A stretch of DNA of 57,294 bases, the filler included, from Dugesia japonica (Eukaryota): the NCBI GenBank assembly GCA_001938525.1. It is 4 parts of 4 records of this genome, joined end to end, with 100 filler letters (N's around TTAATTAATTAA, not from the genome) between each part and the next. Parts side by side here need not be neighbours in the genome. Positions count along the whole stretch, not along the records: positions 9,118 to 25,370 come from MQRL01607603.1; 3 more parts are not named here. One strand, given 5' to 3'. Under the pieces are notes generated by a model. That model did no database searches, was not told the origin of the DNA, and saw only the letters and a list, made by a program, of their open reading frames with translations. The translations under genes were made by a program, and so were the position numbers. Positions 10,497-50,160 of the stretch are shown here, one piece after another. Position 1 is the first letter of the stretch. Each line of letters begins with the position of its first letter.

Positions 10497-13400
10497 CTCT
10501 TTGCTTTTATAAAGTTACATTTAACTATTTCATTATTTGGTTTTTCGTCTTTCATTTGGAATAAATTATTTCCTAAAAGATTTGTTAACTTATTTAAATT
10601 CTTTTGCCCAATTATTTCTACAAAAAGACTATTCGTATCACTGTAATGAATTTTATATTTATTGGGAATTGCTTTATCCATCTAATTATAAATGAAATCA
10701 TAAATAACTTCCTTTGCGTATTCTAAAATAGTGAAACCAATATATGAGAATTTATTATGGTTTAATTTAGTTTTGTAAAGATGAATTGCTGCTGTTTTAT
10801 CCTCACTTGGATTAAATTCTCCTATAAATATTTTACTAGATTTAAAGTTTATTTTACTAGCAAATTTCTAGTAATCTTTATCATTATCTACTATTTCAAG
10901 ATTACACCTATTTCTAATGTTTTCTAAAGTTTTTCCATAGAAAACGTTATTTAATAATTTAAAGAAGACATCGCCAAAAACATCATTATTTCTTTTGGCC
11001 TCATTTCTTTTATCGAAATTAAATTAAATGTAATCTTTTAACCAAGGTTTTTTGGCATTTTATATTTAGTATGAATTTTCTTAATTTTCATTCCTAGAGA
11101 TAAATATAAATCTAAAGTACTTACTAAAACTATATAACTTTGTTTATCAAATTGATTTAGTGTTAATTTAGTATTTTTCTTGGATAATTTCTTGGCGATC
11201 TTAATTGATAAGGAGATAACATTTCTTTTTTAATATTTAAAGGTTCAGAAGCTAATGGAAAGTATTTAGTTTTTTCATGAATCTCTTTTGGATATTCTAA
11301 ATCAACTTCATAAACATAATTAATTTTATCTGACGATTTAGTATATTCTAAACCCTTACATTCATAAATTTCTCCTGTTGGTAAAAGCTTTATCATACAA
11401 CTTGCGTAAAGACTGTTTTCATCTAGATATTTAATATGTGACTTCTTTTCAATTTTCTGGTATAGTTTTATTTTTAATAAATGAAAATAATATATCTCCA
11501 ACTTGTGCTTTGTTTAGTTGTCTAGTTTTTCCAAATTTAGTATTTGACTTTTGGTTATTTGAAAAGACTTGTCTCTCTCCGCAAACTCCTGAATAACCTC
11601 CTCTAACTTTTCTTTCAATTTTAATAAATCTATCGTAACTTTTTTTCTGGGCATATTTTAATTTCACTTGAGTAAATTTCATTCCTGCTTTCCAAGTTAA
11701 TCCTGGTGCAGAATAACAATAACTAGGATCTATTTGATAATTATTTAAACAGGTTTCTCTAAAATCTTTAAAATAATCAGCTAAAATAATTACATCTAAT
11801 TTCATATAAAACATCATGCATTCAAATAAATTATTGAATTGATTAAAGTCTAATAAAAATTCTTTATATTCTTGGTCGGTTATTTCTTTTTGTTTTAATG
11901 TATTAAAGAAATCTTTTTTTGTCGGAATGTTACTACTTCAATTACTAATTCAATTACTTCATTAATATTATTACCTTTAACATAATCATAAGAAAATGGT
12001 ATTTTCTTTGGACAAAGATTAAACGATCTTAAATGGATATAATTATTAGATTCATTTAATGTTTCTTCCTTTTTCTCTACTGAAGTTTGAGTACACATTC
12101 TTGCATAGTCTAAAAATCTAATTGAAAGTTCTTTTGGATTACCATATTCAAAGGAAATGTAAACTTCTTCACTATGAGGAATTATTTTTCTAACTTTACC
12201 TGGATATTTAATAATTAATTCTTTAAAAAACCAATGATTTTCATATCCAGATCCATTGTGAAAATAAAAAGGTATAAATAATTTTTTTATCAATTTATCT
12301 TGTAAATTACATTTGCTGTGAGAATATCCTCTAAATTCTCCATTAAAATGATCGTGATCGATTACTGGAATTTCAGTTATTGTTTTATCACAATATCGAC
12401 AATTTAAGTGAGCTTGCTCACTTTCCTCAAGTTTTGGTTTCTCGCCCATATAAATAAGAATTAATTTATTTTCTTTAATATCTTTTAATTTATTATTTAA
12501 TTCTTCTAAAAATTCAAAGAACTGTTCATGAATGTTTTCTTCATAAAATTCTTTATATTCATGTTGAATTAAATGTTGATACTTACTTACAATATAAGTT
12601 CCTAGTGATAAAAGTTTTTGTTTCTTTGTTCTAACGTTTGTCCAACTTTCAAAGTCACCATAAATTACAAAAGGTAATTTTTCTTTGTAATAATAATTTG
12701 GATAATAATAACTATATTGTTTTGGAAAAACTACATTATTAATTTCATGATTAATACATTCTTTTTGATGGTTAATTAATAAATCTTTACTTCTATATGA
12801 ATTCATACATCAAATACACAAATGATTTTGATGTCTATTTATTGTAAAAAATACTTGTAAATCTCTACATAAAATAAAATGATTATTAAAAACTAATAGA
12901 TTACATTTATTTTCGGTTGATTTTGGTTTAGTCTCATAATGTGAAATAAATAAAGGTTCAAGTTGTTTAACATTATTTACAGTAAATACATTTATTTTGA
13001 AATCATTTAAATTTTCAAATTTTTTAATATAATCTATATGAANAGGAAATTTAATTCAAATTGTTTTCAATTCATCTAAATAAGGAATATAATTACTAAC
13101 TCTAGTTGGATGATTTACAAATACGTGTTTATGGGCTAAAATCGAATATAAAAAACATTTATCATCATTATTTTTAATATTAATTACTCCTCGTTTTGAA
13201 AACAGTAATTTTATATAACTTGCTTTAGCTAAAGATTGATATTTAGAAAGTTCAATTTTAAAATCTACGATATAATTTAAATTCCATCCACTTTCATTTC
13301 GATCTTCATCTTCGATAAATCTTTGAAGTTAATTTAAAATATCAACAACACCTTCATCAATTTCACTTGCTAATATAAATTGTCTATTTTGAGAATATGA

Positions 13401-13574
13401 ATTAAAAATTTTTTCAACATTTCTCCATTCACATCTTTATTATATTTACAATTGACACTCATTCGAACAACAATCTTTTTCCCATAATTGAAATACTTGG
13501 TAATTATTTCTAAGATTTCAGATTGAAATTTGTTTATCATTTTTACTTGTCGCTCTAAACTTTCTACATTTCTA
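10493..13574 (-). pseudogene. Polinton/Maverick protein-primed DNA polymerase B with EndoVII/HNH insertion (copy 1)
   Basis: KNDDKCFLYSILAH (vOTU-like), PFVIYGDFES (ExoI), CRYC..DHDHFNGEFRGYSHSKCNL (EndoVII), FHNGSGYENH, YMKLDVIILAD (ExoIII), RGGYS, YLDENSLY (motif A), KLLNNVFYGK (B), YSDTNS (C). Frameshifted. Confidence 0.95.
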
Positions 13575-14144
13575 TTTTTTCTACATATATATTTTTTAAA
13601 TAATGAAATATTAGCACTTATTTCTTTTAAATTAATAAAAAAATATCTTTAAAATTAAAAGAATCATAAAAATATAAATAAAAGTAAAATATATTTTCAA
13701 AAATCATAGAATTCTTTAAAAGCAAATAGAAAAAAAATATTAATGAAATAATAAAAAANNNNNNNNNNNNNNNNNNNNNNNNNNNNNNNNNNNNNNNNNN
13801 NNNNNNNNNNNNNNNNNNNNNNNNNNNNNNNNNNNNNNNNNNNNNNNNNACACCAAATTAATAACTCTTGAACTTGTGTATTATCACTTATGCCATTTGC
13901 CGAATTCGGAGTCACATACTCGGCGCTATTCGCCATTTCCTTACTACTGACGAAATTCTGCATTACTAGAAATTTCATCAAAAGAAATTAACACAAAACA
14001 ATTCACTCAAACTATGAAGAAATAATTATTATTTAATAATTTTGAGGCAATAGAAATCTAGTTAATTCTGGATAATGATTTTTAAAATACTATTCAATAA
14101 TCATTTCTAATATTAAGATATAGTTTGTAGTAGTAAAATAGAAA

Positions 14145-16045
14145 ATGTCTAAAATTTTGAATTCTGATTTGCAAAATGAATTAACAATTGAAAATTTACC
14201 TAACATCGTGGCAGAGGTAAATACCGATTCTATTACTAAGAGGTTATCACCAAAAATATTCTGCAGAGAAGATGATATTGAGAAATTTATCAAAAGATGT
14301 GAATTGTATTTTGAAGGTAAAAACTTCACTCATGTGAAACAACAGGAGAGAATAGTCTCTTGTTTGTTAGATGAAGATTTTTTGGAAGAATATGCAAAGA
14401 CGTTGAAAAATGTTTAATGTTTTCAGGCTCGTTTACGTATGGAATTTGAGAAAGAGAAAGATTTTATCAAAGATTTTCAAAATTTGATTAGGTCCAGGTG
14501 TGGAAATGAAGAGATTCAAGTTTATTTTAAAAACGTAAAAGATTTAGTAAAAGATTATTTACATATAAAGATAACAAAAAAGTTGAAGAAGAAGTGACTT
14601 TGCGAAAATTAGAGAATATAGAAGAAATTAAAGAAACGATGACGTTAGTAAATCGAGTAGAGAAAACAGAAATCAAGTTGATGCAGTTAGAAGTTACGCG
14701 AGAGTTACAAATCGAAATTATCAGAAACCTGTAAATCATACAGTGAAAATATATGTGGAGCAAAGAAAGAAAAAACAAAATACCGAATGTTGGTTATGTC
14801 ATCAGATCGGTCATACTAAAGCAAATTGTCCGAAAAAAAAGTAGTAGAGTGCTGGAGTTGTCTTAAAACAGGACATATAAGTCGAGATTGTCTAAACAAA
14901 AAGTCAAAAAAATGTTTTGGTTGTGGAAAGGTTGGCCACATTAGAAGGTTATGTCAAGAAGTGAGATGTAAACGATGTGGTAATGGTGGACATAGAGCAG
15001 AAGAGTGCTTCACATATTTGAAAGCGAAAAAAACAAGTGAGAAATTTATGACTGCAGAAAGATCAAGAAACCAATATAATCGAGTACATGCAATTGAAGA
15101 TGAAGAAGTCAGTACAAACTATGGATATGAGGAAGCATATAAAAGTGATTCTGAAAGACAGGGCTCACCCAGTAGAGGAGTTGATTGGAGCCATCCATTG
15201 TTAAATGAAGTTATTAGTTATCCTCAAGGGTTCAAAAAGTGGGATGATATAGAAAATATTACAGAGAAAGTATACAGATTCTTAAAGAGGGAAAATTTTG
15301 CAGATGATAGAAAAGTAGAATGGGTTGTAACAGTTGAAGCAGAAAAGAAAACAAATATTTCTTACCATAAATTACAAGGCAGACCAAGGGTTACGGTATC
15401 AATTCAAGGAAAAAAATAGAATATCTATTAGATACAGATGCTCGAATTAACGTGATGAGTTTGAGTTGTTTTAATTAATTACGATAAGGAAATTTAGAAA
15501 TGAGTGATGAAAGATTGCATTGTGCAAATAATAGTACACTTGAAATTGTTGGAAAAGTAAGAACCAGAGTGAAAATTGATGAAGTTTGCAAAGAGATTAC
15601 TTTCTTAGTCGCTGAAAGAGTAACACCAGATCTGATAGGAAGAATAGATATGCAGAAAATATTTGAATATCAGCAAAAGGTTGATAGCAAAACGGATGAA
15701 AAGGTCGAAAATTACATTTGTAATATTGAAGCGAAATTCGGAAGACAAATTAAAAATGGAGAGCGATTGACAAGAGCTTTAAATATTTTGAAGATTAAAT
15801 AGGATCAACGGTTATTGAAAATAATTGAAAGCAAAGAAGATGCTTTTATGGCAGATAAATTAAATGTTGGACGCGCACATCTGACAAGACACAAAATAAC
15901 CACAAGTGGTGAACCAATGAATGAAAAACCGTAAAGACAACCAATGAACTTAGAATCTAAAATTGAAGAAGCTATCCAAAACCTTTTCGAGAATAATATT
16001 ATCCGAAAATGCAACTCTCCATAAAATACCCCACTGATATGTGTA
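14145..16045 (+). pseudogene. Ty3/Gypsy gag-protease-RT start (family A, copy 2)
   Basis: Four CCHC knuckles (CWLCHQIGHTKANC, CWSCLKTGHISRDC, CFGCGKVGHIRRLC, CKRCGNGGHRAEEC), protease YLLDTDARINV, RT start HKITTSGEP..IIRKCNSP*NTPLICV. Confidence 0.93.
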
Positions 16046-16374
16046 CAAATTCGCATATGTCCTTCCATATTAATAATCGCACTCTCAAATAATCATGTTT
16101 CTTCTTGACATTTTATTACTACATTTGATATTTCTTTATTTACTCTAAAATCAATATGATTATTCGATATCAACTCATCTTTGCAATCTTCAGTTTTTTC
16201 TGGACAATTCTCTACCTCAATAATCAGCATTTCATTCACACACTCACAACAATATGAACATCCACAAGGAACACAATATGCATTAATTAGAATATTTCTA
16301 CATTTTCCACATTTTAGATTATCTGGAAGATTTTTATTGATTTCATATTTATTTTGAGAAACAAATTTAAACAT
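16040..16374 (-). pseudogene. TRAF-like RING + first TRAF zinc finger, truncated
   Basis: CGKCRNILINAYCVPCGCSYCCECV..CP..C..DFRVNKEISNVVIKCQEET*LFESAIINMEGHMRIC. The frame continues through a TGA that replaces the zinc-finger Cys. Confidence 0.8.
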
Positions 16375-17269: not shown

Positions 17270-17800
17270 TTCTTAATGTTTCAATTTTTTAATCGAACAT
17301 TAAGAGACTCTTTGAAAAAATACTTTGTTCATACTGGTAATAAAACCTTGTCAAAATTGATTATTAGTTAAAATCATTCAAGTCATAAAGGTTTAAATGG
17401 AGCAAGATCGATCCATGTAAGTTCAAACAATCAATTAAAATTATGGTTATCACGTGATCAAAGTAAATCAAATAAGATATCAAAATATAAAGTCGATGAA
17501 CCTGTTAGAATCTCAAAAATGCATTAAAACTTTGATAGTAATTGGAGCGATGAAGTGTTTCAAATAATGAAATTCAATACTTAACAAAATCCAGGCATGT
17601 ATGTAATTAAAGATTATAAAAATAATATCATACAAAGAAAGTTTTATGACCAAGAATTTCAAGTCATTCTACCTCTTACTATATATAGAATCGAAAAATA
17701 ATAAAATCGAAAGGAACAAAAAATAATAAACAATATTTTGTAAAATGGCATGGATATCAAAAACCTACTTGGATAATAGCATCACAGTTAGTTAATAATG
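17270..17800 (+). pseudogene. Polinton integrase C-terminal half with chromodomain
   Basis: NRTLRDSLKKYF..KYKVDEPVRISK..NWSDEVFQI..KFYDQEFQ..YRIEK..QYFVKWHGYQKPTWI. Confidence 0.88.
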
Positions 17801-18220
17801 ACATCGAATAATTTCTGTGAACTTTTACGTAGTAATATCTGTCCTCTTATTTATCCGAATAATAATGCTAGTTAATTCATTGTTGAGCTTCAAAATCCGA
17901 TTTATATGTATGGTCAGTGAGAAGGAGCATTGTTTGAGTTTACCCTTGTTTATCAAATATTTTTATTATATAGCAAGTCTAAAATTCAATTAATGTCTAA
18001 AATAAATATATCAAATAATCAAAATTTATCACAAAGAACAATCCTTGAGTTTAAGTAAAAATGAAAATGACAATGTCTATATAGCGTATAATGGTTATTT
18101 AACTATTACATGTGAATATACATATGTTGCCATGTTTGAAAGTGAATCAAGCGCAATTAGATTTAGATTCTCATATCAGATTAATCAAATGGATCCTGTG
18201 TGTTTTTCTAGTAGGTGTAT
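17798..18220 (+). pseudogene. Polinton minor capsid (penton-like) protein, N-terminal part
   Basis: MTSNNFCELLRSN..YPNNNAS*FIVELQNPIYMYGQ*EGAL matches the LPSN..YP.N..S.F...L..PI.L.G.WEVAL pattern. Directly follows the integrase. Confidence 0.75.
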
Positions 18221-19910: not shown

Positions 19911-22462
19911 ATGGGTAGTAAAAAGGTAGTTATTCCAACAAATCCCATCTTAAAGGGTTCCATTAATTATTCAAAACCACAAAAAGTTTTGAATTTAAAC
20001 AGTTTATATAATAGTATAGATAATTGTGAAAAACCTGAAAATTTTAGTTTTGAAGAAATTAATAATTTTGCTAAATGTGAAATTACAAAGATAACAGTAA
20101 ATAAATATTTAATTATTTTAAAAGATATGTATTCCCAAGTAGAGAATTTTAAAGAAAGTGAAAAGTTTCAAACATTATTAACTATAATGATTTCTAAATT
20201 TTGTGAATCTTAATGTAAAGGAGAAATAATAAATACTTTATCTAAAAAACAAAAACAAAATATAGAAAATATAAAACAATTAGAAAGGGATTATCAAAAA
20301 GAAAGGGGTGAACATATTAAATTAAGAGAACAATATAATTTTGAACAAAAACCTAAATTTATTGAACACCCATGTTAGATCTTGATGTTGTCTTTTAGAC
20401 AGAACAAGATTTAATTGTCCAAAATATTTTAAAACGTTTCAATCTATGAGTGATTTAACGAAACATTTGAATTCTACTAATTGTATTGTTAAATTTGTAA
20501 TAAAAGGTTTACAAGACAAAATCATGCTAAAGCCCATTTCAATTCAAAGTCACATAAAGAAATGTTTAATAAAATATTATTTGAAAAATTACCTGGAGAA
20601 GAAGTAATTGATTATGATCCTGAAATTAGAGATATTTTTAGAATGTATAAAAATTATGAAATAGAATATTTTAAAGAAAGTAAAGTTGAATTAACTAGAA
20701 ATTTTGAAAAACTACAAAGACCAGTAAAAATGATCAATGAATTTCAAACTGAAATCCTTGAAATTATTACAAAGTATTTCAATTATGGGAAAAAGATTAT
20801 TGCTCGAATGAGTGTTACTTGTAATTATAATAAAGAAGTAAACGGTGAGAATATTGAAAGAATTTTTAANNNNNNNNNNNNNNNNNNNNNNNNNNNNNNN
20901 NNNNNNNNNNNNNNNNNNNNNNNNNNNNNNNNNNNNNNNNNNNNNNNNNNNNNNNNNNNNNNNNNNNNNNNNNNNNNNNNNNNNNNNNNNNAAATTACAT
21001 AGTTGATTATAACATTGAACTTTCTAAATATCAATCTTTGGCTGGAGGGAAATCATCATACCAAAAATAACCATTTTCAAAACCAGGAGTGAATAATATT
21101 CAAAATAAAGATGAAAAATGTTTTTTATATTCTATTTTAGCACATAAACATGTATTTAGTGATCCAACTAGAGTTGAAAAATATATTTCATATTTAGATG
21201 AATTGAAAACAACCAGAATTAAATTCCCTGTTCATATTTGTGAGGTAAAAAATTTTGAAAAATTCAATGATTTTAAAGTAAATGAATTTGTTGTAACTGA
21301 GTCTTTATATAACTTGAACCTTTATATATTAATCATTATGAAACTAAACCTAAACCAGAAACCAATAAATGTAATCTATTATTTTAAAAAAACCATTTTA
21401 TTTTGTGTAGAGATTAATTAGTATTTTTTACAACAAAAAGATACCAGAATCATTTTTGCATTAGATGTATGAATTTTTATTAAAGTAAAGATTTATTAAT
21501 AATTCACTAAAAGGAATGTATTAATCATGAAATTAGTAATAAAGTATTTTCAAAACATTATATTTATTATTATCAAAATTACTATTATAAAAATAAATTA
21601 CCTTTTGTGGTTTATGGTTATTTTTAAAGTTGGACCAGTGTTAGTACAACGAAACAAAAAACTTTATCACTTGGAATTTATGTAGTAAGTAAATATCAAC
21701 ATTTAATTCAAAATGAATACAAAGAATTTTCAGGTGAGAGTATCCATGAACAGTTCTTTGAATTTTTAAATGAATTAAATAATAAATTAAAAAATATAAA
21801 AGAAAATAAATTAATCCTCAAATATTTAGGTGAAGTAGTTAATCTTNNNNNNNNNNNNNNNNNNNNNNNNNNNNNNNNNNNNNNNNNNNNNNNNNNNNNN
21901 NNNNNNNNNNNNNNNNNNNNNNNNNNNNNNNNNNNNNNNNNNNNNNNNNNNNNNNNNNNNNNNNNNNNNNATTCTCATTCAAAATTTAATTTACAAGACA
22001 AATCTATAAAGAATTTATTTATACCTTTTTATTTTCACAATGCTTCAGGTTATGATAATCATTTATTTTTAAAGAATTAATTAGTAAATATCCTGGGAAA
22101 GGTAAAAAGATAATTCCTCATTCACATGAAGTTTATATATCTTTTCAATATGAACATACTTAGGGGGTTCCCATTAAATTTTTAGACTCAGCAAGAATGT
22201 GCCCATTTACTTCAATCGAGAAAATGGGAGAAACGTTAAATTATTCTGGAAAATATAATCATTTGAAAGCATTTAATCTAAAACCAAAGAAATTATCATT
22301 TCCATATGAATCTGTAAAAGAAGAAAATATTAATCAAGTTATTGAATTATTAAAAAGTAGTAACATACTTTCAAGAGAAGAATATAATAATATATTAAGA
22401 CAAAAAAAAATATCAGAAAGTTATTATAATGAATTTTTAAATGATTTTAGTAACTTTAATAT
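19911..22462 (+). pseudogene. Polinton pPolB N-terminal half (copy 2, same family as 10493-13574)
   Basis: Decayed zinc fingers (..NHAKAHFNSKSH), QNKDEKCFLYSILAHKH, LPFVVYG, FHNASGYDNH, FLDSARMC. Collinear with copy 1 and stops just before ExoIII. The 5' limit is uncertain. Confidence 0.9.
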
Positions 22463-22475
22463 GTGTTCTTTCTTT

Positions 22476-22688
22476 TTAAAGCAGCTTGATCAATCTCCTT
22501 TTTTGCGCTGCCGCTAACTGGCCATAACTAACTGTCCTAATATCGTTGTTAATCTGTTTTGTTGATAGAGCATCGGATTGGATGCAGATGTCTTGGAAAT
22601 CGCTAATAGGGTTGCAACAACTAGGGACATTTATCTGCTGAATTACAGGGGTAAGATGAGCAAAGCGTTTGCTGTTATTATATGGCAT
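22476..22688 (-). CDS. Small hypothetical ORF (70 aa), last of the minus-strand cassette
   Basis: ATG 14 nt after the RING ORF stop, same composition. No recognised motif. Confidence 0.3.
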   Translation of the reverse strand: MPYNNSKRFAHLTPVIQQINVPSCCNPISDFQDICIQSDALSTKQINNDIRTVSYGQLAAAQKRRLIKLL

Positions 22689-22702
22689 TTTAATCAGGAG
22701 GG

Positions 22703-23050
22703 TTAATGGAATGAATTGTTCGACATGAGGTCTATTAATGTAACAAAAACTGGCACGTTTGAGTTAAGTGTTCTACAAGAAGAGCAAGGTACATTATCAG
22801 AGTTGGTGACATGAAAGTATTGGGTTATGCAAGCGAAGCAAAAGAAGTGTCCACAGGGTGCTATTCGGGGTAATATAGGCTGATCATAACATAAGGGATA
22901 TACGGGGTTTTCTTTGGTGAACAAGGTAATTACTGTCATGTCTTGCCACCAGTATTTGTAAGGATTTGTGAGGCTTCTGTGTTTTTCATATAGTGTTATG
23001 CGTGCTTTGTCTAATAAAAATAGTAGCTGAGATTGAAAATTGGAATTCAT
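22703..23050 (-). CDS. C3HC4 RING-finger protein (first Cys replaced by Tyr)
   Basis: YPLCYDQPILPRIAPCGHFFCFACITQYF..CSSC. ATG preceded by a pyrimidine-rich TTTTAG acceptor-like tract. Confidence 0.8.
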   Translation of the reverse strand: MNSNFQSQLLFLLDKARITLYEKHRSLTNPYKYWWQDMTVITLFTKENPVYPLCYDQPILPRIAPCGHFFCFACITQYFHVTNSDNVPCSSCRTLNSNVPVFVTLIDLMSNNSFH

Positions 23051-23128
23051 TCTAAAATATATAATATCAATAATAAGTATAAAGAGAGAAACTATAATAA
23101 CAATAACTAAATATAGATAATACGTATT

Positions 23129-25199
23129 TTAATCATTGTTAACGGACAGTGTAAATGTGGCACCCTTTTCTGTGACCGCAATGGTGTTAAGCAAAACATT
23201 TTCAACAATACACGTTAAGGCCTTCTTACTATCTTCTTTAATGGTTGTTAATCTAATGCGTTTCCTTCCAAATTGTAGTTGCATGTCTTTACTCGATATC
23301 CTTTTCAAAGTTATTTTTGCATTGCTAATATTTCCATCCCACTTATCTATTTTGAGGGCTCTATTCAAATTGATTGTGTCCGTACTATATATCAATTTGT
23401 GGTTCAGGACCGAGGTCATCACTGTCGCTATCCGTATGATACGATATTCCCTCGCAATCCCCTCGTACTTGATCTAAACTAAGATCTTCCACCTCCTCAC
23501 CTGACCAGTATTCAGTTTCACTTTCAGACTCCCTTTGTTCTCTTTGTGACATTGCCCGTTCTGGAATATCGTCATCCTCAGATGCGTCCATATCCGTTTG
23601 TACTACTCTACGATTTCGTAGTATCATATCATCAATCAGTCTCTGCTGCTCACCAGTGTCGTTATGCAGTCTAAGTTCTTCTGTTAAGTCTTCCTCGTCC
23701 CACTCTGTATCTATGTCATTATTCCAATTGTATTTACTATCTGTGCTTCCATCCGTCTCTTCTCCATTCTCTTCCATATCTGAATCTTGCTCAGAGTCTA
23801 ATATCCATACCACAGTATCTGGTTTCTCCTTTTCTCTAATCATGACTTCTTGCAATATTGGCACATTATTTTCTTTACATTGCATACCCGGATTACTACC
23901 AGAGTATATAGAATCTTTCCATGGTTGCTAAGTAATTATTTGTTTGTATGTAATCTTTATGAATGTTATCCGTTTGGCTGTCGATTCTTGCGCTTTTTCT
24001 CTCGCTGTTTTCAACATATCTCTGATGACTCTATCCTGCCCTATGGGTTTAAATATTGCTTCCATAAGGTTGATCAATTTTAACTTCTTTATATTTGGAG
24101 TATACATCTTACGCCACCTGCCTTCCGCAAGATCCCTGATACCAATAACATGTATGTGGTCAATGTGTAAACTCATTAGTTTATTTCCTAATTCAAAGCC
24201 AACTAGTATTTTAACGTACAGCAACTGTCGTGCCTTCAAAATTATAGGGTATGCATCTTTACATTTCTTTATCTTTTCATGGGTATACCCTGTACTTGGC
24301 GTGTCAAAATGCTTTATCCTTTCNCGTGTACATAGGGTTTCATCCAATATAATTTCTCCTTTATTGTTCAATATAGTCAACTCTACCACTTGCAAATTGA
24401 AATATGAATCCTTGACTGTTATCATATCTACATATACTATTAATTGGTCAATATCAGCTTCTGTTAAAATTGCATATTTTGGGAACGATGTGTGGTTAAT
24501 TAGGTCTATATAATTCACTGCGTAATGTCCTTTTATAGCAATATATGTAGGGAAAGGTACAAGAATACGATCATGATAAATAAACTCTACAAAAAGAACG
24601 GCTGGAACATCCTGTATTGCTGTTTTCATTTTGTTCACTCCTGGATCTATTTTTCTTTCTAATAGCAATGTGTTGTTTGCAAGCATATCTATCTCTCGTT
24701 TTTGGTATGAGAATCTAATAGGAGTTTTTGTAACATGTAATCTAATTTCCTTAAGTACTCGTTTTTCATTTATTAGTGCCGCTTGTGGATCTCTCTCTAT
24801 TTCTATATATCCAATTAATTGTTGTAGTGAGTATCTCTGAGCTTTCTGAAAGCGTATCATAATGATATCTTTATCAAAATTGTTGTTCTTTAAGACATTC
24901 GGGATTGTATTTACACACTTAAAAACGTCTATCCTAGGTTCACTATCTTTATCCTTGAACACAAAAGTTTGTATATGATTATAAAAATGTGCGACACCTT
25001 TTGTGACTAAGGATGAGGATGAAGGAATGTTTGTTGAATGTATTGATTTATTATGCATTGATTGTGCTAATTCGCTGTTTTTGTTATTTTGTCTTGTTAT
25101 GTTATGTTCTGCTTGCTTTTATTGATGTGTTTTCTGTTGTTGTAGCCGTATATTATCGTTTGATTGTCGAGTGTTCATATCATGTTGTTGTGACTGCAT
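23129..25199 (-). pseudogene. Multi-domain ORF: Q/N-rich region, unknown domain, inactive DEDDh (REX/ISG20-like) exonuclease fold, acidic tract, basic C-terminal region
   Basis: ORFs 23928-25058 and 23385-23885 share a frame and are separated by one TAG. The frame extends upstream to an ATG at ~25199 through one TAA. 23129-23422 overlaps in another frame (probable frameshift). Motifs VYVDMITV..VVELTILNNKGEIILD..TPSTGYT..ILVGFEL..IRDLA. Confidence 0.7.
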
Positions 25200-25370
25200 T
25201 ATTTACTGTGTAAACTAATGATGTTTTGTGATTAGTCTGTTTTATATTATGATTTGTTGATTGATCTGGCTTGTTTCTGATATCTTTTGTTGAAAGGTTA
25301 TTTCTAAAAGAATGGAATAATTAATGTTTGATTTTAAGGACTGACTAGTCCTATATACTGCTACATCTAC

Positions 25371-25470
25371 NNNNNNNNNNNNNNNNNNNNNNNNNNNNNN
25401 NNNNNNNNNNNNNNTTAATTAATTAANNNNNNNNNNNNNNNNNNNNNNNNNNNNNNNNNNNNNNNNNNNN
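25371..25470. other. Artificial contig linker
   Basis: N44-TTAATTAATTAA-N44. Confidence 0.95.
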
Positions 25471-28039: not shown

Positions 28040-28991
28040 TTGAATACTAAATAATTATTTGAACTACTTCATTAGTTCATTAGTATCATGTTCTTCTATC
28101 CATACCAATTTCAGTAGTAGAAAATTAGCATCTTCTACAACAATAGGTTCAGCAATTCTAATATAAATGAACATTTGATTATAACACTTTAATATTCTAA
28201 GTTTCTTATTACTTTTATATTGCAGTTCTTGATACATCAACGCGTATTCGAGTATATTTTGATTTTTTTAATCGTAATGACTTTGCTAAGATTTTTTCTA
28301 ATTTAACACGTTTAGTTCTACTTGATAATATAAATTCAAAAAGTTGATGTTGTTTTAATATAAAAGTGTTAAATAGCTTTGAAAGGCCTTTATTTACATA
28401 TTTATTTAGTTAATTTATATATTTTGTATACAATTCGGATTCCAATTAGATGTAAAGTTTAGTTATAGAGACATAATAATACTTAATTTTTATTTTTCCA
28501 ACAGAATTATTCTTTTTAAAATACTCAAAGAGAATAGAAACCTTTTTCTCAACCAAATTTACACTATTATCCAATGTCATTCTTTGTGTTTTACTAAATG
28601 CAAATCTTTTCAAGTTTTGAAAAATTTCAAACGTTAATTTGTTCATTCTAATATAACTAGAAAAAAATAAAGCATTATTTTTTATTGTTATATCTTATTC
28701 ATTATAATGTTTATATTCTTCCTTACTAGTCACATTAAAAAACATTGTTTTTTCTATGTTATTAACATAAATTAAATTCTCAATGGGTTTAAATAATTCA
28801 TAATCAATCTTTGATTGACTGAAAATTGGTATGAATGAATACACAAAGTTGAAATTCATCATGGCTACTTCCCAACTACCATACATGTAAATTGAATTTT
28901 GTAGGTCAACAATGTAATTACTACCAGTGCTATTCGAATGAACAAGCTGATTACTATTGATTGGTAAAAGTTTATTGAAATTATTTCTCAT
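28040..28991 (-). pseudogene. Polinton minor capsid (penton-like) protein
   Basis: MRNNFNKLLPINSN..SNYIVDLQNSIYMYGSWEVAMMNF and later HLYIRIAEPIVVEDANFLLL. Paralog of 17798-18220. Confidence 0.78.
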
Positions 28992-29990
28992 TTAACTAAT
29001 TACGAAGCTAATATCCAAGTAAGATTTTCATACCCATGTCACTTTACATAATATTGTTTATTCTATTTTATTCCTTTCGATTTTAGAATTTTTTATATTC
29101 TAAATATTGTAGGTGGCGCAATCCTTTGCCATTCTTGCTCATAATACTTTCCTTGAATGATATTATTCACATGATTTTTAATGACATACATGACTGGGTT
29201 TTGTTTCGTATTTGTTTTTGTTATTTGAAAGACCTCATCACTCAAATTAATATCAAAATTCTTAATGAATGGAGAAACTGTTATCTTTGAGACTCTAACA
29301 TGATCACTAACTTTATCTTTTGGTTTTTTAAATGTATTTTGTTGTTGTTATGTTAACAACAACTTTGCCTGACTATTTAAGCCTACATCCATAGGTTTTC
29401 CTCTTTTTAAGTCTTTATGACTTGAATAATTATAACTATGAATAAGTTTTGGTAAAACATTTATTCAGGTTTTATTTCCAGTGAGAGCAAATTACTTTAT
29501 TAAAGCTTCACGTAATGTACGATTAAATCTCATTACATGTGCAACTTTATATTGTGAAAATACAATGGTCTATGTTTAAATGTTTAAGAAGATTTTTAAC
29601 TTTATAATAGCAAAACTCCCGTGTCTTTTAGTAAATTATCATAATTTACATCTTTCCAGGATAACTTGATTACAGTTTCCATATCAGCAGCTGATTTTGT
29701 CTTGACTGGAACAGCTCTCACAAATCTGTTAAATACATGATTGCATGTTAAAATTTATTTGAACCCTTTATTAATTTTCGAATATGGAATTATTTCCATC
29801 AAATCCATTTGCCATAAATCATCAATACCAAAGGTTTTATACGTTCTTGTTGAAAATTCTTTCAACATTGGTTTGTTCAAACTGTAAGCTTATTGGCTCG
29901 ATAACCATTTTTGGATCTGCTTTTTGATATTTGTGCTACCTTTCAGTGCTACATATTCTGTAGATTTTCCTTTACAACAACTGGATAAAA
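28990..29990 (-). pseudogene. Polinton retroviral-like integrase with chromodomain
   Basis: KWLSSQ*AYSLNKP..GIDDLWQMDL..FNRTLRE..GDHVRVSK-like..EVFQI..GKYYEQE..QYYVK*HGY. Confidence 0.9.
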
Positions 29991-32434: not shown

Positions 32435-34091
32435 TGTAGTATTAAATTGAGAAAATAATTTATTAAATATATTAAAATATTTCCTGAATCCAATCAATTG
32501 GTTCACACAAGTAGATGCAGCATTCGAACTTTCCAACATTCGCAATTTCAAAACAAAGTATTTTCATCTGCTCACCAGTTTGCCTCCAGATATTTTGGAA
32601 ATAGTGTCATATGATTTGAATCCACATTGCAATGATCCTTATGAAAATCTAAAACAAGCCATATTAGCGAAAACGTCATTGTCAATGACTCAGATAATCG
32701 ATCGGCTTACAAATTCAAAAAGAATTATATAAGCGTCCATCTCAAACTTTATTGGAGCTTACACAATGCTTCAAAATTTTGCACTCTGGTGAAAATCCAG
32801 AAACATCAAACCTTCTCAGACACAGATTTATGTAGTCAGTGCCAATCAATATTCGACATCATTTGGTATAATACCAAACTAAAAGAAATTAAACATATTT
32901 CACTCTCGGACCTTGTCAAAAGCCAGAAAGACAATCAATTTCTCAAAGACATAAAAAGTCACTCTAAGAAACTGAAAATATCTAAGGAAGGTGTTCTGAT
33001 TGATACTTTGAAGGCTAGCACGAGAATCGTTCTGCCGGAGTGTTTTCGCTTTAATGAATTCGAAAGACTCCATAATATGTGTCATCCAAAATCAAATGCA
33101 ACAATCAGATTACTAACAAGTCAATATGTTTGGCCTGGTATGAAATTCCAAATTTGTAAATGGTGCAGATATTCTCAGATATGTCAAGCTAATAAAATTA
33201 CTAGGCACACAAAAGCACCGTTAAGATCTATTCCGAATCTAGGGAAATTCAAAGTATTGCACATAGATTTGGTTGGTCCTTTACCAATCATTAAAAACAA
33301 AAGGTTTATACTAACAATTATTGATCGTTATACTTAATGGGGACAGGTCGTGACTCTGAATGAAATTACATCCGAATCCGTGCTAAAAGCCTTAACAAAG
33401 AATGGATATCTCGCTTTGGAGTACCAGAGATTATAGTAAACGACAATGGTAGACTATTTATAACTGAAAAATTTAACGATTTCGGCACTAATTTTGGATT
33501 TGAACATAGGCATACAACACCATATCACCCACAGTTCAATGGGAAAATAGTTCTCTAAAGAATGCTCTCCAAACTCAAGGAACTAATGCTAAACGTAGTT
33601 GCTTAGAAAATCTTCCATTAACAATGTTAGGAATCCGTAAGGCAGTGGATGAAGATTCAGAGTTATCACCATACCAAACAGTTTTTAGGACGAATATCTG
33701 TTTACCAGGTGATATTGTTGTACCATCATGCTCTGACAGACAAACAATGGTTCCAACAGAATTTCGAAACAGCTGTTTCAGATCACATGGAGTCACCAAA
33801 ACTTTCATGACACAAGGAATTGATAAATGTAAATTTGTATGGATCAAACGCAAATTAAGAGGACCACTACAGCTAGTATACGAAGGTCTATATCTGGTGA
33901 CTTGGAGAAATTAGGATGGGAATGTTATTGAAGTAATGCGATGATGACAAGCAGAGCGCATTTCCGCAGACAAAATTCGTCCAGCCTTTATCTTAAATGC
34001 TCCTCCATCTGACTGGTGGAGTGATGTAGTATTAAATTCAGAAAATAATTAATTAAATATATTAAATATTTAATTAATTTTGTTTATATCA
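32435..34091 (+). mobile_element. Internally deleted Ty3/Gypsy element (family B, CsRn1-like): LTR stub, gag, integrase, PPT, 3' LTR
   Basis: LTR start TGTAGTATTAAATT at 32435 and 34025, PPT CTGGTGGAGTGA, gag WFTQVDAAF..KYFHLLTSLPPD..PYENLKQAIL, integrase LHNMCHP..WPGMK..CQ, HIDLVGPLP, IIDRYT. PR/RT/RNase H are absent. Confidence 0.92.
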
Positions 34092-34191
34092 NNNNNNNNN
34101 NNNNNNNNNNNNNNNNNNNNNNNNNNNNNNNNNNNTTAATTAATTAANNNNNNNNNNNNNNNNNNNNNNNNNNNNNNNNNNNNNNNNNNNN
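34092..34191. other. Artificial contig linker
   Basis: N44-TTAATTAATTAA-N44. Confidence 0.95.
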
Positions 34192-38407: not shown

Positions 38408-40235
38408 AATATTAATATTAGATTTTCCCTGGACAATATTAATATTATTATTAGATTCTCACCCAGACAATATTAATATTAACATGAGATTCTCCACGAT
38501 GTTAATATCTCCCGGGATCCGATATGAAAAGTTAAAAGCATGCAAAAGATAGATTAGATTTGTTATTTTAATAAATAATTAAATTTGTACATGTCTTTTA
38601 GTTATTACTAATGTATTTTTTTATTTTTGTCTTATTAATTTTATATATAAAACAAGTAATAGTACAAAAACAATGAAAAACCAGATTTATTAACAAAGAT
38701 TTATTTAATAAATTGTTTGATAATTTTCTGAGTATTATTAGTTGAGAACATGTGCCAGAATACAATCAATTGATTGGCTCATCAAAGTATATATGCCCAT
38801 AACTCTGGCATGTCCAACACTGTGATTCTATTCTTTTTTTAACTCTATCAATATTTTGCCTCTTTTCTCCGAAACGTTCTCCACGTGTTACACCATTGCA
38901 ACTCTTTACTGCAATAATAGGTTCTCTTCTTTCTATTTTTTCAACTAATGATAAAGTTTCTTTTATTTCCACTACTTTCTCTTATTTTCACATGATAATC
39001 TCTTCTTCTGCTTTTTTACTATTTGCACAAATTATCAGCATTTTTGATAATAGTTTTTCTTTCGTCAATTCTCTATTTGCTAAAAATTTATCGACTAAAT
39101 CTTCCACTTTTTTAAAATACACCTCAAGTTCTTCATCACCACGTTGATAGCTNACAAGATTCTGTAAATCTTTTATTATGTCTCTCTTGCTCTCAAAAGC
39201 TAATCATAATCTCTCTCGATATCCATCAGTTTTCTTCAATGTCTTTACACATGCTTTAATTAAATTTTCATGAAGCATACGCCTTACCCAACGTTCCTGA
39301 TCTTTCTTAACGATGATCTTAGCCTCAAAGTATATTTCACACCGTTTGATAAACTTTTCTAGCTCTTCGCCTCTGCAAAATACTTTTAGCAAACAATCTT
39401 TCTGTAATTGCATCGGTGTTTATCGCTGCCACCATGTTAGTTGAGTTCTGAAAATTCATCGTATCATCAATATCAAAATTCAAATTCATTACAACACTTT
39501 ATTTAAACCAAAATTTTAACCAACAATATTTGCTAAACAAACAAATCAAAATCCCGTGTTTCATTGGTGATCATTTTTCAAAATCTAAAACTGTAATTTA
39601 TTTATTTAAAATTTAATTTAATTTATTTCAAACATTTTATTTATTTATGTAAAATTTAAAGCAATTTCTTTCACCTTAAAAATTTACTTTATTATCCAAT
39701 CACCATTTTTGAATTTTTTAAATGGAAACTTAATTTATTTAATCTAATTTTAATTCAAAAAAATATCTGATTCTGTATACTGGGTTCCTGAGATATATTG
39801 GTATCGTGTTAAAATGGATACCAGTGTTGACATAAAAGAAACCATCAAAATATACTTTGAGGAACCAATCAGTTGCTTGTATTCTTGCACATGTTCTCAA
39901 CTAATAATACTCAGAAAATTATCAAACAATTTATTAAATAAATCTTTGTTAATAAATCTGGTTTTTCATTGTTTTTGTACTATTACTTGTTTTATATATA
40001 AAATTAATAAGACAAAAATAAAAAAATACATTAGTAATAACTAAAAGACATGTACAAATTTAATTATTTATTAAAATAACAAATCTAATCTATCTTTTGC
40101 ATGCTTTTAACTTTTCATATCGGATCCCGGGAGATATTAACATCGTGGAGAATCTCATGATAATATTAATATTGTCTGGGTGAGAATCTAATAATAATAT
40201 TAATATTGTCGGGTGGAAAATCTAATATTAATATT
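38408..40235. repeat. ~385-bp near-identical inverted repeat pair (38408-38792 / 39850-40235)
   Basis: Direct reverse-complement reading of both arms. Confidence 0.92.
38797..39489 (-). pseudogene. Gypsy family-A-like gag fragment (copy 3)
   Basis: VFCRGEELEKFIKRCEIYFEAK..CWTCQSYGHI. Confidence 0.85.
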
Positions 40236-48277: not shown

Positions 48278-49147
48278 CGATTTAAAATGAAGCCCTGCCT
48301 TTCTGGTACTGTCTTTCGGAATCACTTTCATATACTTCCGCATTAAATTTTCATTCTCAATCGCATGTATTTGAATATATTTGTTTCTTGGTCTTCAGGA
48401 AGTCATAAAGTTTTCAATTTTTTTTCTTTTCATTTTCAGATTTGTGTATCACTCTTTTATTTTTTATCTACCCTTTCCAAATATATTACACCTCACTTCT
48501 TGACATAACCTTCTCAAATGACCAATTTTTACACAACCAAAGCATTTTATTGGTTTTGTATCTGGAAACTTTTGCATAACTTCTAACTGCATTGACTTGA
48601 TCTCTACTCGATCGAATATCATCGTTGTTTCTTCAAATAGTTCTATATTCTGTCGTTTCCACAAAGTCACCTCTTCTTCAACTTTTTTGTTATCTGAATA
48701 ATATACTAGCATCTTAGCTACCATTTTATCCTCTGTAAAATCTTTTTTTAAAAATAATCTTTTCACTAAATTCTTTTCATTTTTAAAATAATCTTGAATC
48801 TTTTCATTTGAACGACTGTAGTTTATCAAATTTTAAAAATCTTTGATAACATCTTTCTCTTTCTCAAATGCCATGCGTAAATGTGACAGAAATCATTCCA
48901 CTTTTTTCAACATTCTTACATATTCTTCCAACAAATTATAATCTAACAAACAAGACACTAATCTCTTCTGCTGTTTCACCTGGGTGATGTTTTTAGCTTT
49001 AAAATACAATTCGCACCGCTTGATGAATTTCTCAATATCATTTTCTCTGCAGAAAAAATTCTGTAATAGAATCATTATTTACCACTGCCATCATATTAGG
49101 TAAATCTTCAATTGATAATTGGTTTTTCAACTAATATTTTTAGACAC
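48278..49147 (-). pseudogene. Gypsy family-A gag (copy 4)
   Basis: FCRENDIEKFIKRCELYFKAK..CFGCVKIGHLRRLCQEVRC. Confidence 0.9.
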
Positions 49148-50160
49148 AATTTATTTCACAACTAAAACAGATATTTGATAAGATAATTTTAAGTGATTAG
49201 AATTAATTAAATATTAATATTCAATTAAATCACTTTCTATGGGCTGGAAGTTTTAAATAATAATTATTCCCTTAAATAAGTTGTCAATTTTAACTCTTTA
49301 TTGATACAAATATGATTAAAATTACAATTATGCGTTAATGCTATCTCTGCTCATATTATTATTGTCGTTAGCATTTGGATGGTCCTTTTCTGGTCAATTT
49401 TAATATCAAGTATATTTGATTCCTCGATACTATATTGTCATCAAGAATCGTTACATTACTATTATTTTATTATCATGATTACTATATCCATAGGACTTTC
49501 ATCCTAATTTATTAAAATCTTCGTTAGATTCCAATGCAACATATTTCATTATCGAATGACGAAATTCAGATTAAAAATAAATTAATCTGATACATTTAGA
49601 CATGGACGAGAACGCCCCTCAAATCTGTCGAAACTTCAAATTTTGCACAAACCTGCCAATCTCTACAGGAAAAGATAGCCATATTGGTTGGGAGATGTCA
49701 CATCTGAGTTAGCAAAATATCGAATATACTTCGGAGAGACGAGTTTCAAGGTATGAAAATTTGGTAATTAAAATCGGATGTTGAATGGCTCCGACAGGAA
49801 AATACAGGCTTATGGAGACTACAATTGTATCTTCCCTCCACATCAACAGCAATCCCTCCACCGAAGCAGATCCGAAAGATCAAAATTGACCTGTGTAAAG
49901 AAAATAAGTGACATAGTTGACAATGATTTGTATATTTAATTAAAATATGAAAATTTTGCTCTTTGACATATTTTATCAATATGGCTTCTATCGCCGTTTT
50001 ATGGACCTGAATAACATGCAGATAGTGCGCTCAAGCACTCTTAACGTTGTCCAAGAGTCACCGTAGCTGCCATTAACTCAGCTACATGGCAGTTAAATTA
50101 AATCCTCGTTTCCGGGTTATGGAGTGATTTTTGAACGAGACATACCACTCATACCACCAC

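Follow-up and report, generated by a model that had tools for sequence, protein, structure and literature searches.

A decayed gene cassette of Dugesia japonica with a predicted barrel–pseudonuclease protein, probably the accessory region of a giant Ty3/Gypsy retrotransposon

What kind of element carried the compact, virus-like block of genes that lies in decay beside a Polinton-type DNA polymerase gene of Dugesia japonica, and what was its main protein for? The stretch of DNA analysed here (the window, 57,294 nucleotides) is AT-rich (GC 26.2%), animal-type and full of transposon remains. The cassette occupies its minus strand (25199→22476) and consists of a long frame, ORF1, followed by a C3HC4 RING ORF and a 70-aa ORF (Table 1). 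An earlier note, made from the sequence alone, had described some 2.7 kb of same-strand coding with raised GC and a reconstructed protein of about 690 residues, and both descriptions hold. The longest stop-free run in ORF1 measures 396 codons; 1000 shuffles never reached that length, their maximum being 193. The GC content of the cassette is 35.3%, compared with 22.4% in the adjoining pPolB. The main frame (25199-23385, minus strand) contributes 605 codons and a tail in another frame a further 85, giving 690 in total; in-frame stops lie at 25119-25121 and 23928-23930, and the frame breaks near 23385.

The Q/N-rich start and the D/E-rich tract that had been described are both present, in the proportions given in Table 1. 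In the leader region, the pLDDT is below 50 over a large part of residues 1-35 of the model. The motif at the end of the acidic tract is shared with a relative, P0002 (E 8e-4). The tail proved basic to a mild degree and no further, and its frame gave no significant match to relative P0018. ORF1 had also been called a polyprotein, a description that we reject, as nothing points to processing. An Rfam search gave no match.

Table 1. Features of the cassette and its surroundings, in window positions
Feature	Position	Strand	Remark
Decayed Polinton-type pPolB copy 2	20693..22461	+	truncated at junction
Sharp junction, cassette vs pPolB copy 2	22461..22462		end of copy 1 homology
70-aa ORF, putative	22476..22688	-	open frame
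C3HC4 RING ORF, 115 aa	22703..23050	-	Pfam zf-C3HC4 28.4 bits, cut-off 21
ORF1, about 690 codons	23129..25199	-	two stops, one frame break in window copy
ORF1 C-terminal tail, shifted frame	23129..23385	-	K/R 18%, D/E 11%, mildly basic
Acidic tract of ORF1	23385..23927	-	D/E 30%; GPEP-I motif at its end
Predicted ISG20/ISG20L2/SDN1/REX4-like DEDDh exonuclease fold	23931..24443	-	1/5 catalytic residues kept
Predicted cupin/AlkB-type double-stranded beta-helix (DSBH) domain	24564..25022	-	model matches; HxD..H triad absent
Q/N-rich, low-confidence ORF1 leader	25023..25199	-	Q/N 33% of first 60 positions
Very high-copy stretch upstream of ORF1	25277..25370		summed contig depth 12,000-13,500
Spacer N44-TTAATTAATTAA-N44	25371..25470		cuts off 5' flank of cassette

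The unbroken 396-aa piece of ORF1, modelled with AlphaFold (pLDDT 82.6), contains two domains. Residues 226-396 of the model match ISG20 (1wlj; Z 17.8, rmsd 2.1, 155 residues aligned), and the family profile matches ISG20L2 (1e-23), SDN1 (7e-20) and ISG20 (3e-15), so the REX/ISG20-like fold read earlier from the sequence is upheld by both structure comparison and profile. The structure of Exuperantia (Z 10.3) and viral exonucleases are also among the fold matches of the model. Direct searches with the nuclease piece of the window gave no match to Pfam or PDB sequences and none in a word-indexed protein search.

Replacement of the catalytic positions, also proposed earlier, applies to four of the five; the first Asp of the DEDDh set is kept (codon 24426-24428). 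The ExoI D-x-E, present in 21 intact relatives, reads D-M-I in the window copy. The ExoII Asp column holds Lys313, and the H-x4-D columns of ExoIII hold Glu and Arg in two alignments, in a local register that is somewhat unsure; the ExoIII segment has no His anywhere. None of the 40 displayed differences between copies, of 963, falls in a catalytic codon. The predicted domain is of a DnaQ-like, ISG20/REX-like fold that has lost four of its five catalytic residues.

The N-terminal part of the protein, previously listed as an unknown domain, is indeed distinct, and the model makes it identifiable as a cupin/AlkB-type DSBH fold. Model residues from about 33 to 185 match DSBH proteins, with the AlkB group best: Ofd2 (Z 11.4, rmsd 2.8, 126 residues aligned), ALKBH6 (Z 11.1) and ALKBH7 (Z 10.6). 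ALKBH6/7/1/5/8 and Ofd2 all fall within Z 10.1-11.4, simple cupins are nearly tied at Z 9.7, and the Foldseek matches also include cupins and viral AlkB-type entries. An intact relative that was modelled separately likewise gives DSBH matches (MPnS, MINA53, the CENP-C cupin and HppE). Since these fall in other classes, we regard the modelled fold as secure and its subclass, AlkB or cupin, as not secure.

The sequence motifs of such enzymes are missing. HxD/E is absent from the N-domain of the window protein and, at any one column, occurs in at most 3 of 28 family rows; for the R-x5-R 2OG-binding motif, no Arg column is conserved in at least 55% of these rows. The residues that the 28 rows do conserve are a Tyr (24/28), a Pro-Asn pair (27/28 and 24/28), a Ser/Thr position, a His (27/28) and a Glu (27/28), the lone row without the Glu having Asp there. 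The conserved residues may line one pocket.

The window protein belongs to a family in which catalytic loss recurs. A full HMMER scan found 25 related proteins, and a profile search gave 17 matches, 11 of them new. The resulting alignment has 39 rows; five fragments (P0006, P0008, P0010, P0024 and P0035) were excluded from tree and counts, and four rows are cellular REX-like proteins, so that 30 non-cellular rows remain for class counts. All five catalytic residues are kept in 21 of the 30 (the intact class), with Asp or Glu accepted at ExoII; many of these proteins have Glu at the third acidic position. The other nine, the window protein included, keep none or one (the dead class). The acidic metal ligands of the dead class are mostly swapped for Lys, Arg or Gln: in eight of the nine rows, Lys or Arg stands in place of the ExoI Glu, the window copy having Ile, and eight of the nine have Lys or Gln at the position of the ExoII Asp. 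The barrel His and Glu are kept in both classes, and the two subfamilies align over both domains (probability 99.1). Within the dead class, the genes of P0009, P0015 and the metagenome contig L001 are 45-72% identical to one another. Pairs of intact-class relatives are under purifying selection (dN/dS 0.40/4.4 and 0.19/1.09).

In the family tree, in which the cellular REX4-like rows form the outgroup, the window protein sits on a long branch, at only 18-24% identity to its relatives (25% at most). Its three nearest relatives are all dead, which supports, at the level of sequence, a loss of catalysis that predates the window copy. The stops, the frame break and the missing RING ligand of the window copy would also fit neutral decay with a functionless dead class, and the data neither establish nor reject that this class arose once (p-AU 0.095). 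However, dead-class genes stay open over 417-660 codons in several unrelated records, the same positions have been swapped to basic residues, and the barrel His and Glu persist; we consider neutral decay extremely improbable as an explanation for the class.

The state of the window copy can be set against that of other copies in this species. Four DNA-type runs gave 1956-3227 contigs each on 21971-25370, mostly less than 95% alike; this range includes flanks, all 30 bins are covered, and contigs should not be counted as copies. This species has multiple copies of the cassette, which agrees with the earlier description of a mobile-element accessory module. Pieces of other copies, roughly 80% identical, span the stretch from the ORF1 tail into the RING ORF and that from the RING ORF into the region of the 70-aa ORF, which indicates that the gene order is common to copies. 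Within the second stop codon, nearly all covering contigs depart from the window copy, as some do at the frame break. Among the 40 displayed differences, which were chosen by the tool (923 more are hidden), 27 fall in the ORF1 main frame and 22 of these at codon positions 1-2, a distribution that fits private decay of the window copy against a constrained family.

Matching RNA reads are few. Four RNA runs, of each of which 6-25% was read (46.7 million records), yielded 23 matching reads, some of them on flanks, and none of these reads was at least 95% alike to the window copy. No RNA run among those indexed is listed as containing the cassette. The window copy was not seen expressed, and diverged relatives give a trace of RNA.

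The second gene was correctly assigned to the C3HC4 RING class, as it passes the Pfam cut-off; seven of the eight zinc ligands are left in the window copy, in which the first, a Cys, has become Tyr. Its best PDB match is the RNF123 RING (E 2.4e-6), and it may also resemble RNF10/Mag2. By its sequence, the protein may have had E3 activity. In a homologue search restricted to proteins of 63-202 aa, neither of two candidates held up. The 70-aa ORF follows on the minus strand where it had been described and matches no Pfam family.

As to the carrier, the earlier note had left the choice between a Polinton and a giant LTR element. Relatives of the cassette lie downstream of an ankyrin-bearing Gypsy pol, and none was seen beside pPolB. 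Of 61 candidate stretches from a metagenome scan, 7 were confirmed, namely five family members and two of cellular type; the latter (L006 and L007) are REX-like matches and were left out as element context. The most informative relative is L001, an 11.5 kb contig that represents the same element as L002. It starts just before the protease, and its 2368-codon frame encodes protease, RT, RNase H and integrase, followed by a second protease and ankyrin repeats (Ank_2, E 4e-12). After this pol come a dead-class gene, an intact gene and a ubiquitin-like ORF (a weak match, E 0.04). The two tandem paralogues are only 19% identical. L003 repeats the dead-then-intact order: the tail of a dead-class gene (43% identical to P0009, E 2e-17) precedes an intact gene 50% identical to that of L001. 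The tandem occurrence of intact (5/5) and dead classes had been overlooked in the earlier note.

Read from its sequence, the domain order of L001 is that of Ty3/Gypsy elements, and its ankyrins and ubiquitin-like domain recall Burro, which makes it Burro-like by analogy. Burro/GYPSM1, a giant Gypsy element of planarians, is described with a similarly long polyprotein, ankyrin, accessory ORFs and a ubiquitin-like domain, and in an alike setting, an AT-rich host with Polintons (PMC6431247). Two differences stand out, in that L001 has a second protease after the integrase and no Pfam dUTPase match, and the section describing Burro lists no exonuclease or cupin/AlkB ORF for it (PMC6431247). Further domains that mark Burro are env, BIR, BCL2 and MATH.

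On this evidence, the cassette is probably the accessory region of a giant, Burro-like Ty3/Gypsy retrotransposon. The linkage to Gypsy is that of the relatives, among which a single independent element (L001=L002) reaches pol, and we infer it for the window copy, which has no gag, pol or LTR linked to it and whose 5' flank ends in a spacer. Because of the low identity and long branch noted above, the carrier of the window copy may differ from that of L001. The gene content also differs: L001-L005 have no RING after their nuclease genes, and in the window the dead gene precedes the RING ORF, not an intact paralogue. An arenavirus-like NP+Z insert, which would likewise combine an exonuclease with a RING, was considered and rejected, as the folds are of ISG20/REX type and DSBH and the relatives are Gypsy-linked.

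The same observations bear on a role outside the element, in which the genes benefit the host or counter competing viruses (an ISG20-like antiviral function or superinfection exclusion), or form an amplified host gene family. The closest structure is that of the antiviral RNase ISG20, and an antiviral role has been proposed for retrotransposon accessory domains (PMC6338049). Yet the cassette is intronless, exists in many diverged copies, is decayed in the window and yields next to no poly(A) RNA, and its relatives adjoin pol, all of which makes a host or antiviral role quite improbable. The single-copy, intron-containing host gene that had been named earlier as a refuting finding is not what we see in this intronless, multi-copy cassette.

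The flanks of the window copy bear on the Polinton. The cassette had been described as joined to pPolB. It does abut pPolB copy 2 at a sharp junction; pPolB lies on the plus strand and the cassette on the minus, so that the two are convergent, and a fusion was rejected on the grounds of opposite strands. Copy 2 is 75-83% identical to copy 1 at 11832-13577 on the minus strand, and an adjacent piece of copy 1 matches DNA_pol_B_2 (E 3.5e-5, under the curated cut-off). At 22461, agreement between the copies drops from 29/40 positions before to 13/40 after, and copy 1 continues past the corresponding point without a cassette. The cassette side of the junction starts with TG on the plus strand (a CA end on the minus), which is LTR-like and no more than suggestive of an element end at 22462. 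No PPT was found before the junction, and contig depth does not rise there, unlike what is expected for an LTR. Upstream of ORF1, the very high-copy stretch stands out against a summed depth inside the cassette of about 200-10,000, mostly below 3,000; it may be an LTR/promoter or another repeat. The layout of the spacer beyond it (N44-12-N44) occurs again at 9018-9117 and 34092-34191.

These data can be weighed against the possibility that the cassette is cargo of a Polinton, or of another DNA virus-like element, that includes the adjoining pPolB. Direct contact with pPolB would agree with this, as would the occurrence of RING and DEDDh genes in DNA viruses and the viral exonucleases among the fold matches. 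Several features disagree: the opposite strands, a pPolB cut mid-gene, a GC of 35% vs 22%, a pPolB copy 1 without cassette, and a summed depth over pPolB bins mostly several-fold above that of the cassette. In addition, scans of IMG/VR found no relative of the family and none of the L001 RT region, a search of GTDB genomes found none, and Gypsy linkage is seen in the one relative whose context is long. We consider Polinton cargo very improbable. Opposite in strand and broken off at the junction, pPolB is more likely to be a neighbour of the cassette, or the target of its insertion, than its carrier.

Our preferred reading is that of a decayed Gypsy accessory cassette whose main protein was an RNA-binding pseudonuclease that helped the element counter host RNA silencing. 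We give this reading as a whole an even chance, and put forward its counter-silencing mechanism as a tentative proposal. The family would have arisen when a REX4/ISG20-like 3'-5' RNase was joined to a barrel, and the His/Glu pocket of the barrel may recognise an RNA feature such as a modified base or an end. Intact paralogues would act on RNA 3' ends by trimming or destroying them, as SDN1 does, with host small RNAs as the most plausible target. Dead paralogues would grip RNA ends without cutting, via the basic residues that replace the metal ligands. The dead form could thereby shield the element's own RNA or steer an intact paralogue. As the dead gene of the window is followed by the RING ORF, such pairing would need an upstream or trans partner. 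The RING protein, in turn, would attach ubiquitin to a host factor of silencing or RNA decay. Insertion or deletion would have brought the element, or part of it, up against the Polinton pPolB, after which the window copy would have decayed. Planarian LTR elements and Polintons are reported to be piRNA targets (PMC8532177).

The main rival to counter-silencing keeps the same Gypsy carrier and gives the proteins no part in opposing host silencing. They would instead serve the element's own replication by processing the 3' ends of its genomic RNA or cDNA, or by packaging or chaperoning these, and the dead form would be a structural RNP component. ISG20L2 and REX4, the closest folds, mature structured RNA, and ORF1 has an acidic tail of the kind typical of nucleic-acid chaperones. 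Moreover, 3'-end processing has been proposed for the DEDDy ORF3s of rotifers (PMC5408684). Against this, ordinary Gypsy elements replicate without such genes, and the presence of RING and ubiquitin-like ORFs alongside suggests that host proteins are the targets. We regard a role in replication as possible and as the less probable of the two.

Several known systems share parts of this architecture. The rotifer parallel drawn in the earlier note stands as far as DEDD accessory ORFs go: bdelloid Juno/Vesta LTR retrotransposons and Terminons have a DEDD-superfamily exonuclease ORF3 downstream of pol, likewise accessory, and a DEED motif variant is reported for it, matching the Glu that many intact members of our family have at that position (PMC5408684). 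It does not extend to the nuclease family, since the rotifer ORF3s are described as RNase D-like DEDDy enzymes with intact residues, whereas the proteins here are REX4/ISG20-like DEDDh domains fused to a DSBH and, unlike the ORF3s, comprise dead and intact classes that occur in tandem (PMC5408684). An AlkB-type extra ORF, read as counter-surveillance, is described in a giant Ty3/Gypsy element of orchids; this AlkB (2-ODD) m6A demethylase is active and keeps HxD/E..H and RxxxxxR, whereas in our family the motifs are absent throughout and the barrel is fused to an exonuclease (PMC9289625). The cellular DEDDh RNases ISG20, ISG20L2, REX4 and SDN1 are the best structural and profile matches of the family; they are without a cupin/AlkB domain, and the window protein differs from them in the four lost catalytic residues. 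Maelstrom and EXD1 are described as catalytically dead DEDD folds that bind RNA (PMC5408684). These two and Exuperantia are host genes of other DEDD branches, whereas the family here is element-borne and has intact siblings.

The cassette is thus of a known kind, a retrotransposon accessory ORF, and what our literature searches did not turn up is the cupin/AlkB-DEDDh fusion, the division of the family into intact and dead members, and the occurrence of both in tandem. Nor did the literature yield an exonuclease ORF of Burro; Repbase or supplements may already annotate such ORFs. Animal retrotransposons have rarely been documented to encode proteins that suppress small-RNA silencing. It is conceivable, if unlikely, that the family represents an undescribed counter-defence system of giant invertebrate Gypsy elements, in which a mark-reading barrel is joined to an exonuclease, enzyme and pseudoenzyme form a pair, and a RING protein removes silencing proteins.

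The window copy itself is a decayed fossil, and its value is as a pointer to the family, which offers natural, intact, soluble candidates for direct assay. A DSBH barrel whose conserved His/Glu pocket is non-canonical might represent a new type of reader of RNA marks. If the proposed system is real, the pair would selectively destroy host piRNAs or siRNAs, or would shield the RNA of the element.

Two diverged elements recovered from metagenomes, L001 and L003, both carry a tandem of cupin-exonuclease paralogues (the family of ORF1 in the window), in which a dead copy (0-1 of the five DEDDh catalytic residues) precedes an intact one (5/5). The L001 tandem is positioned immediately behind a giant Gypsy pol. 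Past its integrase, the L001 polyprotein contains a second aspartic protease and ankyrin repeats, as well as a long segment that carries no annotation and in which two hydrophobic stretches look transmembrane-like.

With respect to the remaining ORFs, the N-terminal part of the ~200-aa ORF, found in L001 and in L002 (the same element), may resemble a TFIIS N-terminal domain. The small acidic ORFs of L003 and L005, two diverged elements, share a similar motif at their C-terminal end, P-x-W-M...V-N. The two UniParc relatives of ORF1, P0002 and P0018, look like chimeric gene models; in both, a large part of the barrel is missing from the element ORF, which has been joined to unrelated sequence, in P0002 a biotin carboxylase domain.

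Features of the window and of the metagenome relatives
Feature	Location	Strand	Remark
Inverted repeat pair, 386-bp	window 38408-38792 and 39850-40235		97.7% identical
Inverted fragment pair	window 17288-17928 and 28864-29527		72% identical; by eye, resembles Polinton-type integrase
Decayed Gypsy-like gag(-pol) fragments	window 3148-5269, 14119-16025, 38769-39440, 48309-49268		mutually related
Integrase	window 32645-33914		separate from gag(-pol) fragments
Cys-rich frame	window 16096-16374	(-)	by eye, resembles TRAF-type RING + zinc finger
Gypsy polyprotein	L001 3-7106		extends beyond integrase
Dead-intact tandem	L001 7286-10371		
Dead-intact tandem	L003 2-1888		
~200-aa ORF	L001 10906-11517; L002 5956-6573		C-terminal ubiquitin-like match, weak (E 0.04)
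Small acidic ORFs	L003 2068-2322; L005 2264-2557		3' of nuclease gene

Within the window, the Cys-rich frame gave no match in a Pfam search; it adjoins a decayed Gypsy gag-pol. One of the four Gypsy-like fragments retains three CCHC knuckles, and a gag fragment is enclosed by the 386-bp inverted repeats.
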